A stretch of DNA of 27,221 bases, taken from NCBI GenBank assembly GCA_041657685.1, contig JBBABK010000001.1, positions 6,227 to 33,447 on the forward strand, written 5' to 3'. This stretch comes from Phycisphaerae bacterium. GTDB taxonomy: Bacteria; Planctomycetota; Phycisphaerae; Sedimentisphaerales; Anaerobacaceae. Each line of letters opens with the position of its first letter. Position 1 is the stretch's first letter. Made by a program: the position numbers and the translations under genes. Below, piece by piece: positions 2,233-24,137 of the stretch. Below the pieces are notes generated by a model that saw only the letters and a program-made list of their open reading frames with translations, was not told where the DNA came from and made no database searches.

Positions 2233-2913
2233 ATGAGTGGATTGAGATTGCCGAAGGCTGGGACGGTCGAAGTTGTGCCGTCGATACTGAGCGCGGATTT
2301 TGCGAAGCTGGCCGATGAGCTTGCGCAAGTGAAAGCCGCCGGGGTGAAGATGGTGCATCTCGACGTGATGGACGGGCACTTCGTGCCGAACATTACGATT
2401 GGGCCGCCGGTAATTGCCAAGCTGCGTCAGCACAGCGATTTGGTTTTCGACAGTCACCTGATGATAACTGCCCCGGAACTTTATGCCGAGCAGTTCGTCG
2501 AGGCGGGCGTGAATAATATAACGTTTCATATCGAGGCGGCGAAGGAGCCGGAGAAATTAATTGAGAATTTGCACAAGTGGGGATGCACGGCCGGGGTGAC
2601 GCTCAATCCGGATACGCCGGTCGAGGCGATAAGGAAAATTGCGCCGCTGTGCGATATGGTACTTGTTATGACGGTCGAGCCCGGTTTCGGTGCGCAGGAG
2701 TTTATGCCTGAGGCGGCGAAAAAGGTTATCGAGGTGCGAAAGATTGTGGGGCCTGATATTCGCGTGGAAGTTGACGGCGGGATTAATCCGGAGACTGTGC
2801 CGACGGTTATAAGATACGGGGCCGATACGCTGGTAGCGGGCAACGCGGTATTCGGCACGGGCGACCGTGCGGCGGCGATTGAGGCGATTCGCAAAGCAGC
2901 GGGGATTAGTTAA
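2233..2913 (+). CDS. rpe: Ribulose-phosphate 3-epimerase
   Basis: PSILSADF, HLDVMDGHFVPNIT.G, DSHLM, VLVMTVEPGFGAQ, EVDGGIN, LVAGNAVF. ATG 2233 is preferred over GTG 2182, which lies in a hairpin repeat. Confidence 0.96.
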   Translation: MSGLRLPKAGTVEVVPSILSADFAKLADELAQVKAAGVKMVHLDVMDGHFVPNITIGPPVIAKLRQHSDLVFDSHLMITAPELYAEQFVEAGVNNITFHIEAAKEPEKLIENLHKWGCTAGVTLNPDTPVEAIRKIAPLCDMVLVMTVEPGFGAQEFMPEAAKKVIEVRKIVGPDIRVEVDGGINPETVPTVIRYGADTLVAGNAVFGTGDRAAAIEAIRKAAGIS

Positions 2914-2941
2914 TAGTCATTAGTCGTTAGTGAATAGTGAA
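2907..2941 (+). repeat. Heptamer array (TAGTGAA-type), 5 units
   Basis: tagttaa tagtcat tagtcgt tagtgaa tagtgaa. The rpe stop TAA lies within unit 1. Confidence 0.9.
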
Positions 2942-2970
2942 TGGACGGGGGAGTGGTTTTTTGGTAGAAT
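2942..2970 (+). promoter_or_regulatory. Putative sigma-70 promoter for accD
   Basis: TGGACG-17 nt-TAGAAT between two heptamer arrays. Confidence 0.45.
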
Positions 2971-2978
2971 CCTTACGA

Positions 2979-3021
2979 TAGTGAATAGTCGTTAGTGAAT
3001 AGTGAATAGTATAGTGAATAG
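2979..3021 (+). repeat. Heptamer array (TAGTGAA-type), about 6 units
   Basis: tagtgaa tagtcgt tagtgaa tagtgaa tagta tagtgaa tag, ending 4 nt before the accD ATG. Confidence 0.9.
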
Positions 3022-21431: not shown

Positions 21432-22047
21432 GCCACAGAGTTTTTTATTTATTAAAAGCCACGGAGAACACACTTGTCCCGATGTCTTCTATCGGGAGAG
21501 CTCGCAGAGTAACAAGTCGAGATTTTCTTAACTTTCTAAACCTCTATGGCAAATTCCTCATTCATGCTGAAATCCAGTTTATCATTAGCTTCCTCACTAC
21601 TTTTAATCTTGGACATGATGAGCTTTTCGTCCTTGACATCTTCTTTCAGCTTATCAAGGTCATCTTTAACTCGACTTTGAAAATATTGCTCAAATTCTTT
21701 TCTGGAAAACGCATACAGTCTTTTCATTATCTCTTCGTTGTTTTCTCCAAGTTTTTCCCAACAGGAAACTATTCTATCAAGCACTGAAACCTGAACAGGA
21801 ATTCTGATAACCTCCTCATAAACAGAACATTCTAATACAAATCTAGCCCAATGCTGCGGCTTCTCCTCATAAGGCCGAAGGCCTATGTGTTCAATAAGCT
21901 TGAACTGGTACCTCATACGGTTCCTTTCTGCGGTTCTTCTACCAATTTTTACTTGTGTTTCGGGTTTCATATAGACACCTTCGAGATTTAATTTATTTTT
22001 CTCTGTGCTCTCTGTGGCTATAACATAAATTATTATTTCTCTGTGGC
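21432..22047. mobile_element. Putative non-autonomous cassette bounded by nested GCCAC(A/G)GAG inverted repeats
   Basis: Outer IR GCCACAGAG (21432-21440) / CTCTGTGGC (22039-22047). Inner IR GCCACGGAGAACACA (21458-21472) / CTCTGTGCTCTCTGTGGC (22001-22018). These enclose an AT-rich orphan ORF. No transposase is present. Confidence 0.5.
21536..21970 (-). CDS. Orphan hypothetical protein (144 aa; alternative start 21916), visibly AT-rich
   Basis: Uninterrupted 144-codon ORF, A/T-ending codons unlike neighbours, acidic/basic C-terminus. No motif recognised. Confidence 0.6.
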   Translation of the reverse strand: MKPETQVKIGRRTAERNRMRYQFKLIEHIGLRPYEEKPQHWARFVLECSVYEEVIRIPVQVSVLDRIVSCWEKLGENNEEIMKRLYAFSRKEFEQYFQSRVKDDLDKLKEDVKDEKLIMSKIKSSEEANDKLDFSMNEEFAIEV

Positions 22048-22869
22048 CAATTTATACCGCTTTACAAATTCCGCGTATTGCTCGGCTGTGTCGATACCGT
22101 CGCAGGTGTGTTTTACTTTGGCGACCAATATCGAATAGCCGGTTTCGATTGCGCGCAATTGTTCCAGTTTTTCTATTTGTTCCAATCTGCCCTGCGGCAT
22201 CTTTGTAAACTCTAAAAGGAAATCCCTGCGGTAAGCATAGATGCCGAGATGTCTCAAATACTGATTCACCGCGCCGATTCCATTGGCCTGCCTGTCATAC
22301 GGAATCACCGAACGTGAAAAATAGATTGCCCTTTGGGCATTGTCGCTCGTCGCTCGACGCTCGTCGCTCGTAACGACTTTTACGATATTCGGATTTGCGA
22401 TTTGGTCGGCTGATTCGAACCCGGCGGCGAGTGTCGCCATCGGGGCGTCGGGATTATCAATTAGAAGCTGCGCGACGGTGTCGATATTGGCGGGGTCGAT
22501 TTCCGGCTCATCGGCCTGCAAATTGACAACAATATCATCAGGGTTCAGGGTGCAGGGTGCAGGGTTCAGTTTTTCGTTTTTCCTGTCCCCTGTCCGCTGT
22601 CCGCTGTACGCTGTTTCTATTGCCTCGGCGATTCGGTCGGTGCCGCTGGCGCAGTCGGGGCTTGTCATTATGCATCGTGCGCCGAAGCTCGCCGCGGCCT
22701 GGGCCACTCTTTCGTGGTCGGTCGCGATAAGAACGATATCGGGCAATTTGGCTTTCAATGCCTGTTCGTATGTGTGCTGGATGAGGTATTGGCCGGTATC
22801 AGCGGCGAGAACTTTATTGGCGAATCTCGTGGATTCGTAACGGGCGGGTATGCAAACAATCACTTTCAC
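22033..22869 (-). CDS. kdsB: 3-deoxy-manno-octulosonate cytidylyltransferase (CMP-KDO synthetase) with two repeat-derived insertions
   Basis: IPARYESTRF..K.L, IATD, SGTDRIAE, VNLQADEP, IVKVV, AIYFSRS.IP, HLGIYAYR, LE..EKLEQLRAIE.G, GIDT. GTG 22869 has AGGAG upstream. Confidence 0.95.
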   Translation of the reverse strand: MKVIVCIPARYESTRFANKVLAADTGQYLIQHTYEQALKAKLPDIVLIATDHERVAQAAASFGARCIMTSPDCASGTDRIAEAIETAYSGQRTGDRKNEKLNPAPCTLNPDDIVVNLQADEPEIDPANIDTVAQLLIDNPDAPMATLAAGFESADQIANPNIVKVVTSDERRATSDNAQRAIYFSRSVIPYDRQANGIGAVNQYLRHLGIYAYRRDFLLEFTKMPQGRLEQIEKLEQLRAIETGYSILVAKVKHTCDGIDTAEQYAEFVKRYKLATEK

Positions 22870-22972
22870 GAACCCGAATCTCCTCACTGGCTTTTACCAG
22901 GCTGGGTTTTGACATTTCAGAGACCGCACCGGCCGGGAAAACACGCCGATGCCTCGGTCTAACAGGATACGT

Positions 22973-23001
22973 ATCTTAGAAAAAATAAACCGCCGTGTCA
23001 A
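22973..23001 (-). promoter_or_regulatory. Putative sigma-70 promoter for kdsB
   Basis: Minus strand TTGACA-17 nt-TAAGAT. Confidence 0.65.
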
Positions 23002-23090
23002 CATAACAAAATCAATTAACCGCCGAATGTTAAAAAACCGTCCTAATTATAAGGAAAACGCCTGTTGCACTGAACGCTGCACCTTGTATC

Positions 23091-24137
23091 CTAAAGAATC
23101 AGCATTGCGTCGCCGTAGGAATAAAATCGGTAGCGATTTTCAACGGCGTGGCGATACGCCGAAAGAATATTCTCAAGCCCGGCAAACGCGGCAACCAGCG
23201 CAAGCAGCGTCGAGCGCGGCAGGTGAAAATTCGTAATCATCGCATCGACGATTTTAAATTCATAGCCCGGCAATATGAATATCTCCGTCTCGCCTTCGGA
23301 TGGAGCTATTTGTTTATTATTCGCTGCACTTTCCAGCACTCGAACGCTCGTAGTGCCGACAGCGATAATCCTGCCGCCATTAGATTTTGTTTCGTTGATG
23401 ATTGCGGCATTTTTTCCATCGACGGAAAATTTCTCGCTGTGAATTTTATGTTCTTCGAGCGTCTCGCTTTCGACCGGCTTAAACGTCCCGGCGCCGACGT
23501 GCAGCGTTACGTTCGCGAAATTGACGCCCTTATTTTTTAGCTCACTTATCAATTCATCGGTAAAATGCAGACCCGCCGTCGGTGCCGCGACCGCGCCGCT
23601 GCGATTGGCGTAAACGGTCTGATACCGCTTCTTATCGAGTTGGTCCTGCGTCGCATCGTTATTTCTCTTTATATAAGGCGGCAGCGGCGTAAATCCGATT
23701 CGCTCAAGCACCGCCTCGTAATCGGCTGATTCCACTTTCAAAGTGCATTCGCCGCCCTGTTTTTTTTCAATCAGCTCAGCCTGCGCAAAATCGTTACCGT
23801 CTTTATCTTTGAGAAAAATTCGCTCTCCCGTTTTGATTTTGCCCGCCCCCTTGAGCATTACCAGCCAGCTGCCGTCGGCTGTTTTGTCGAGGAACAGTCC
23901 TTCGAGTTTGGCGCCGGTTTGGCGTCGTGCAAAAAACCGGGCCGGCAGCACCTTTGTATCGTTAATAACCAGGCAGTCGCCTTTTGAGAGGTATTTTGCG
24001 ATTTTGCTGAACCTGCCGTCCTCGAGCGAAGCGTTTTTGCGGTTCAAAACCAGCAGCTTCGATTCGCTTCGCACGTCCGCCGGCTGCTGAGCAATCAGTT
24101 CGGCAGGCAGTTCATAATGAAGTTTATCAGTTCGCAT
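23091..24137 (-). CDS. queA: S-adenosylmethionine:tRNA ribosyltransferase-isomerase
   Basis: YELP.ELIAQ.P, NDTKVLPAR, PLPPYIKR, YQTVYA...GAVAAPTAGLHFT, TLHVGAGTFKPV, VGTTSVRVLE, TNFHLPRSTL, RFYSYGDAM. Confidence 0.98.
   Translation of the reverse strand: MRTDKLHYELPAELIAQQPADVRSESKLLVLNRKNASLEDGRFSKIAKYLSKGDCLVINDTKVLPARFFARRQTGAKLEGLFLDKTADGSWLVMLKGAGKIKTGERIFLKDKDGNDFAQAELIEKKQGGECTLKVESADYEAVLERIGFTPLPPYIKRNNDATQDQLDKKRYQTVYANRSGAVAAPTAGLHFTDELISELKNKGVNFANVTLHVGAGTFKPVESETLEEHKIHSEKFSVDGKNAAIINETKSNGGRIIAVGTTSVRVLESAANNKQIAPSEGETEIFILPGYEFKIVDAMITNFHLPRSTLLALVAAFAGLENILSAYRHAVENRYRFYSYGDAMLIL

Follow-up and report, generated by a model that had tools for sequence, protein, structure and literature searches.

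How does a run of tandem 7-nt units come to lie, in frame, within the gene of a housekeeping enzyme, and what keeps it there? The question is raised by kdsB, the gene of CMP-Kdo synthetase, an essential LPS enzyme, in a 27,221-nt stretch of DNA from an uncultured Phycisphaerae bacterium (Sedimentisphaerales), the whole of which is called the window here. The source genome is a MAG (2.14 Mb, 318 contigs, 84% complete) in which one copy of kdsB was found, and the relatives of the gene come from Sedimentisphaerales/Phycisphaerae MAGs. The ORF list places the CDS at 22033..22887 on the minus strand (284 aa) with a GTG start at 22887. The start of P0001, an identical protein in the public databases, is set 6 residues further in, and 22869 may be the true start. 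The minus-strand ORF, which reads ...AEAIETAYSGQRTGDRKNEKLNPAPCTLNPDDIVVNLQ..., matched PF02348 (cytidylyltransferase) over residues 10-251 with an E value of 3.6e-48, and in a comparison with the PDB, 13 solved KdsB sequences matched the protein with E values of 1e-45 to 1e-24. The best 32 Foldseek matches of an AF2 model were all KdsB, with TM scores by target of 0.79-0.86, values of 0.84-0.86 being reached with KdsB structures. By homology and predicted fold, the ORF at 22033-22887 is an intact KdsB.

The repeats form the loop between the helix ending in GTDRIAEA and the strand DIVVNLQ, referred to as site 1. Insert-free orthologs have 18 nt, or 6 codons, at this position, whereas ortholog loop extraction gave a loop-coding segment of 84 nt, or 28 codons, in the window (22537..22620, minus strand; IETAYSGQRTGDRKNEKLNPAPCTLNPD). 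The conserved flanks of the loop are GTDRIAEA and DIVVNLQADEPEID. On the coding strand, the loop consists, in order, of ATA GAA, (ACAGCGK)4.5, AAAAACGAAAAA and (CTGMACC)4.5. The first array, arm A (22583..22614, minus strand), has the units ACAGCGT ACAGCGG ACAGCGG ACAGGGG ACAGG and encodes YSGQRTGDR; TRF describes it as CTGTCCG x4.6 on the plus strand, with 92% matches. The second, arm B (22538..22569, minus strand), has the units CTGAACC CTGCACC CTGCACC CTGAACC CTGAT and encodes LNPAPCTLNPD; it is TCAGGGT x4.6 on the plus strand, also with 92% matches. Between them lies an A-rich spacer of 13 nt (22570..22582, minus strand; coding strand AAAAACGAAAAAC) that encodes KNEK. The spacer, T-rich on the plus strand (TTTTTCGTTTTTC), is itself two heptamers, namely, two units of the A-rich family AAAAAGY, which makes long arrays elsewhere in the genome. 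An earlier note on this DNA had described facing arrays at 22538-22569 and 22582-22614; direct reading and TRF confirmed both, the second at 22583-22614, and the translation agrees with the one given there. The facing CAGG and CCTG cores seen there are real as well: judged by their units, arms A and B are one degenerate family (CTRWMCS) in opposite orientation, and for this reason the cores face each other and an imperfect hairpin is predicted. A 93-nt stretch folds in silico into such a hairpin, with the spacer as its loop (RNA, -29 kcal/mol; z -5.6; 0/200 shuffles as good), and the two-arm module of a relative, L003, has a predicted RNA fold with a z of -6.2. On the plus strand, which is the kdsB template, positions 22542-22566 read GGGTTCAGGGTGCAGGGTGCAGGG and match, at the level of the sequence motif only, the canonical quadruplex pattern G3N4G3N4G3N4G3.

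In the protein, alignment with the PDB sequences is interrupted exactly here: query residues 92-117 face 4-5 residues of 1gq9, giving ~22 extra residues. This agrees well with the claim of about 20 additional residues before DIVVNLQ and describes an in-frame loop extension made of repeats. The AF2 model has a helix at residues 82-95 and a strand at 119-123, with pLDDT of 48-65 over residues 91-110. In a Rossmann-like sheet, the connection from helix to strand generally faces away from the substrate site. The stretches AEAIETAYSGQR and LNPAPCTLNPDDIVVNLQ correspond to loop-spanning peptides of KdsB.

If the loop is translated, stop codons should be missing exactly where the units fall into frame. 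In arm B, TGA/TAA at unit positions 2-4 falls in frame in unit 3 only. Indeed, TGA/TAA was present in unit 3 in 0/26 distinct ortholog arrays but in 49/78 of units 1, 2, and 4 (Fisher 3e-9, for arrays that are phylogenetically non-independent). Likewise, the in-frame unit of arm A in orthologs always has CAG, whereas the other units frequently have TAG. The units in the window had been called stop-free in the coding frame; this holds for the in-frame unit, the one in stop phase being altered, whereas units 1 and 4 of the coding-strand arm keep an out-of-frame TGA. Moreover, the kdsB loop is in frame in 116/116 distinct ortholog loops. The site-1 loop is thus, as far as codon patterns reveal it, translated as part of KdsB, and the stop-avoidance signature makes its removal at the RNA level unlikely.

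What, then, constrains the sequence of the arrays? Heptamer position explained 82% of the variance in column variability and codon position 2%, and third codon positions were not the most variable. The way in which arrays were chosen biases heptamer positions 1, 2, and 6 toward low entropy but leaves the codon-phase result unbiased. Since variation follows the heptamer and not the codon, it is the DNA that is constrained rather than the peptide; at the protein level, the only constraints visible in these alignments are that the frame stays intact and that in-frame stops are avoided. Units were more similar inside one array (0.80) than units of the same index across arrays of different species (0.74), which points to homogenization of units inside arrays.

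The survey of site 1 covered 120 proteins, together with 80 loci from metagenomes and 80 species genomes. Because the query used to rank the top-80 ortholog sets itself bore the insert, the share of orthologs with arrays is inflated. The loop occurs as a baseline of 6 residues (VADIDV-like), with one arm (14 aa, of the CTRWMCS or RTTCRAA family), with two arms (26-30 aa), or in longer forms (34-40 aa) that have three extra units or nested hairpin pieces. On a tree of 108 proteins calculated with the insert columns left out, at least 26 changes of state were counted, 8 of which are forced by well-supported branches. In the nearest relative (L093; 91% identical and syntenic), site 1 is occupied by (ATTCAAA)x4.5. 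The arm B type NPxPCTLNP is common to the window and its tree neighbors P0003, P0004, P0005, P0008, and P0016, and the two-arm module of the window therefore looks inherited; probably, the two-arm form was inherited inside the clade, and the nearest relative then swapped to (ATTCAAA)4.5. Judged from this distribution, site 1 is a lineage-wide hypervariable hot spot in Sedimentisphaerales kdsB. A relative with a ~97% identical kdsB was seen in the soil run X4, on a contig joining the window from 22618 onwards, and carries (AGAAATC)n on the coding strand in the same loop; this is a third unit family at site 1 among near relatives.

When filled and empty site-1 loops were compared, neither a residual common sequence nor a target-site duplication was found. 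The earlier note had assumed an insertion into the loop, but the orthologs show the entire 18-nt loop replaced and not interrupted. Steps in loop length of 7 to 14, 29 to 36, and 15 to 22 aa fit a quantization of 21 nt; in its strict form, this holds only partially, since an array-free loop differs from a one-arm loop by +8 or +9 aa. Three runs from two studies yielded contigs with the two-arm module, which rules out an assembly artifact; coverage of kdsB was incomplete in runs X3 and X4. The kdsB arrays of different MAGs (site 1 of L020, L029, L155, and L173, and protein P0038) enclose a ~24-nt piece, CCTGAGCGAAGTCGAAGGG, that is read in two frames, as PVLSEVEG in L020/L029 and as CPERSRRA in P0038.

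KdsB has a second hot spot (site 2). TRF identified a second in-frame heptamer array, GTCGCTC x4.3, at 22342..22371 (minus strand), which encodes TSDERRATSD and lies in the beta-hairpin loop after VKVV. Among the 161 loci surveyed at site 2, some relatives have the arm A/A-run/arm B module there, in the same reading frame as at site 1. The site-2 loop is as variable as site 1: it has a 6-aa baseline, arrays of 14-15 aa from at least 10 unit families (ACGAGCG, TCGAGCA, ACGAGTC, ACGCAAT, ACGCAGA, and others), two-arm modules of 25-28 aa, and forms of up to 50 aa, the longest of which include nested REP-like palindromes translated as MDSRLRGND. Variants at site 2 were seen in the relatives L005, L013, L054, L059, L076, L144, and L173. 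The hairpin pieces nested in the kdsB arrays of relatives measure 24-33 nt and are always multiples of three.

The arrays are not peculiar to kdsB. With a TRF score of at least 40, the whole genome had 87 arrays of period 7, compared with 8 of period 6 and 11 of period 8, and a second-order Markov control gave 0 of period 7; this excess bears out the idea of one repeat family throughout the genome. In 480 kb of relatives' loci, 57 period-7 arrays were found versus 0 in the control. The arrays are mostly intergenic. Genome-wide, at least 29 sites carry the YAGSGK family, which is CTRWMCS read on the other strand, and most of these sites follow immediately upon a stop codon. Merging gave 197 arrays of period 7/14/21; in the relaxed period-7 list, ~19 lie in ORFs with coding-like flanks, or 16 without the three of kdsB. 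As expected by the earlier note, period-7 arrays occur at alignment gaps in other coding sequences: in-frame arrays were found in ProRS, ValRS, UvrC, WaaA (two), and prepilin peptidase and also in an HNH/AP2 protein, and where checked, they lie at alignment gaps or variable linkers. The kdsB insert is thus not the only coding example, and it is missing from the solved KdsB structures and from the nearest relative, so that the refuting condition of the earlier note does not hold. In 80 relatives (L198-L277), WaaA carries 39 period-7 arrays at two loops, with ~4.6 units and changing families.

Some further observations concern these arrays. The Kdo transferase gene waaA of this genome (L082, G000:C2:3168-4583) has its in-frame arrays at C2 3532-3557 and 3775-3806, so that KdsB and WaaA, both of the Kdo pathway, have two array hot spots each. 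The lengths of period-7 arrays cluster at 24-27 and 30-33 nt, with the peak at 30-33 nt and a sharp drop above 33 nt, in intergenic arrays as well; the distribution does not decay as simple slippage would predict. Loss of mismatch repair was rejected as a cause: MutS is present in 20/21 genomes of the clade, including this one, and MutL_C in 19/21. No C-terminal domain of MutL turned up in this MAG (84% complete), whereas three of three genomes of the same genus have one; most likely, the assembly has a gap there.

Probably, the insert belongs to the long-SSR/STRR kind of repeat, as a composite heptanucleotide simple-sequence array that is tolerated in, and lengthens, the surface loop between helix and strand of KdsB. 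Its composition on the coding strand would be (ACAGCGG)~4.5, (AAAAACG)~2, and (CTGAACC)~4.5. Such arrays could arise and turn over by repeat dynamics, that is, by in-frame replication slippage and by conversion between units, and homologous recombination in the highly conserved flanks may swap entire loop alleles. The arrays would be retained in places where ~10-30 additional hydrophilic residues can be accommodated by a disordered loop that faces away from the active site, and the hairpin would be a by-product of two arrays of the same family lying head to head and not a selected structure. As read from the orthologs, the repeat-made loop of KdsB is rapidly rewritten between related species and is not a classic jumping element.

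An excess of heptameric SSRs, with inverted pairs and fast turnover among close relatives, is known for GGGAATC in Xanthomonas and GGGGAYT in Nostoc (Rehm et al. 2015, PMC4692102), and a report of heptamer over-representation from 2007 is cited in the same paper. The arrays described here share with the heptameric long SSRs of Calothrix/Nostoc (STRR), Xanthomonas, and Nostoc the few-copy 7-nt tandem units and the excess of period 7, the mostly intergenic location, the occasional inverted stem-loop pairs, and the large changes between close relatives. They differ in that they are found in frame in genes of essential enzymes at recurrent loop hot spots, in that the unit family switches between near relatives with the length kept tightly at ~4.5 units, and in their lineage, the Planctomycetota (Sedimentisphaerales). 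None of the papers searched described heptamer repeats in planctomycetes.

Some findings fit slippage less well. The narrow array length (~4.5 units, 30-33 nt) is found also in intergenic arrays, which are free of a frame. In some genomes, arm A/A-run/arm B stands at two non-homologous kdsB loops in the same frame, and therefore the module can presumably be copied as a unit. Finally, scattered insert-free lineages have one and the same 6-residue baseline, which is poorly explained by repeated precise deletion or gain. In view of array length, recurring baseline, and the module at two loops, a process of copying or writing beyond slippage may be at work. In its strongest form, it would be a dedicated DNA-level process in Sedimentisphaerales, and perhaps in other sediment lineages, that writes and homogenizes ~32-nt arrays at fixed hot spots and can copy two-arm modules between sites; repeat DNA of a non-coding type would continually overwrite loops of essential enzymes such as KdsB and WaaA, with selection editing out only in-frame stops. 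We regard such a process as conceivable but doubtful. If it existed, it would be a previously undescribed source of hypervariability in protein loops.

A different account is a small non-autonomous mobile palindromic element, similar to an RPE, MITE, or SDR, that entered the gene as one piece, in frame, and was retained because it is open in that frame. The imperfect palindrome with its 13-nt loop and strong predicted fold, in the window as in L003, would suit such an element, as would the two-arm architecture at two different kdsB loops in some relatives. Small hairpin pieces nested in the arrays of relatives, for example, the ~24-nt CCTGAGCGAAGTCGAAGGG in its two frames, recall the SDRs of cyanobacterial heptamer arrays; a 2008 report by Elhai et al. 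in Genome Res (18:1484; cited in PMC3116915) is said to describe SDRs nested in the heptamer arrays of Nostoc. In this respect, the kdsB arrays of relatives with their nested pieces of 24-33 nt show a likeness only, and nested pieces are absent from the window's own kdsB module. In-frame insertion is documented for RPEs, and palindromic insertions of this kind are known in Rickettsia (RPEs and intragenic MITEs are reviewed in PMC10969869). Like an RPE, the kdsB module is palindromic repeat DNA translated in a housekeeping gene, where it adds a surface peptide compatible with the fold. However, RPEs are multicopy elements of ~150 bp whose families share a consensus and whose peptide is conserved, whereas the kdsB module has 77-84 nt of degenerate heptamers, is single copy in the genome, and has no consensus beyond the 7-nt motif. 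In a regex scan of the 84%-complete genome, the kdsB copy was the only match to arm A/spacer/arm B, and elsewhere in the genome blastn-short matched single arrays only. The idea of one module entering genes in the manner of RPEs therefore found no backing: there was no second two-arm copy, no full-length consensus, and no target-site duplication, and the loop is replaced whole rather than split. Furthermore, unit sequences vary among orthologs and the arms evolve independently, and units that contain stops have no open frame, so that they could not have entered an essential gene unchanged. A mobile element is therefore unlikely.

Alternatively, the hairpin or the template-strand G3N4G3N4G3N4G3 might be a cis-regulatory structure selected for pausing, stability, or replication signaling, with the peptide incidental. 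The strong predicted fold, the canonical G-quadruplex motif at ~22542-22566 of the plus strand, and variation at the level of DNA and not of codons are in line with this, and G-rich heptamer repeats with G4 potential are known in Xanthomonas and Nostoc (PMC4692102). As in the G-quadruplex heptamer repeats of Rehm et al. 2015, at least four G3 runs with short loops are present, as a sequence motif. But duplexes of a module's own arms had -24.4 kcal/mol, compared with -25.1 kcal/mol for pairings with arms of other modules (permutation P = 0.75), which does not indicate co-evolution, and many orthologs have one arm, none, or families that are not G rich, such as ATTCAAA. An Rfam search of 21900-23100 gave no match at an E value of ≤1, which also counts against a cis structure or a known RNA family. 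We consider selection for such a structure improbable.

It is more improbable still that the extended loop is an adaptively selected feature of the protein, for example, an interaction or localization peptide. A similar two-arm peptide pattern (ADSGQRTADRK..KLNAxRYTLNAD) does persist in many species, and part of the loop is modeled at moderate confidence. However, the peptide shifts non-conservatively with every change at a heptamer position (NAERCPLNAD, SAIRYTLSAD, SPIPYPLSPD), an excess of variation at third codon positions was not seen, close relatives have no loop or unrelated peptides, and pLDDT is low.

Phase variation by slipped-strand mispairing, in which the gain or loss of one 7-nt unit would switch kdsB off and on, can hardly account for the array: 7 is not a multiple of 3, so that a slip by one unit shifts the frame, and heptanucleotide switches are known in other bacteria, but each arm has only ~4.5 imperfect units, kdsB is a single-copy housekeeping gene here, the loop is in frame in every ortholog examined, and contigs of four runs held no ±7 variant, the last being a weak argument since contigs drop rare variants. 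Heptanucleotide phase-variable repeats are reportedly found at HMW1A of Haemophilus. The 7-nt unit and the change of frame or expression upon a one-unit slip are shared with such repeats, but those arrays, found at contingency genes, are long and perfect, whereas the kdsB array is short, imperfect, part of a housekeeping enzyme, and in frame in all orthologs. An intein or intron was rejected in view of the small size (84 nt), the lack of a matching domain, and the stop-avoidance signature.

A composite simple-sequence array tolerated in a surface loop, our preferred explanation, has consequences beyond kdsB. If it holds, the dynamics of repeat DNA shape part of an essential enzyme, and selection on the peptide does not: variation follows heptamer position, the unit family switches between relatives only 9% apart, and selection is visible only in the kept frame and the removed stops. 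The loops offer a natural system for determining how much arbitrary sequence an enzyme loop can absorb and a route to what makes heptamer arrays of fixed size, a question as old as the first observation of heptamer excess in bacteria. On the practical side, array loops inflate the length variation of orthologs and can introduce errors into the alignment, gene calling, and strain typing of planctomycete MAGs.

The kdsB module had also been likened to intergenic two-armed modules. This likeness found no support, the intergenic modules using other unit families and often being direct and not inverted. In the window, intergenic AATAGTG/ATTAGTC arrays rich in TAG/TGA are found directly after gene ends at 1982-2028, 2905-2942, and 2978-3021. 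Within 2905-3021, two direct arms surround a core of ~40 nt, so that not all intergenic "two-armed" modules are inverted. At G000:C199:3045-3142, in turn, a perfect inverted pair (AAAATCA x4.7 and ATTTTTG x4.6) surrounds a GC-rich, terminator-like hairpin (GAAATCCCGACTTCGTCGGGAT).
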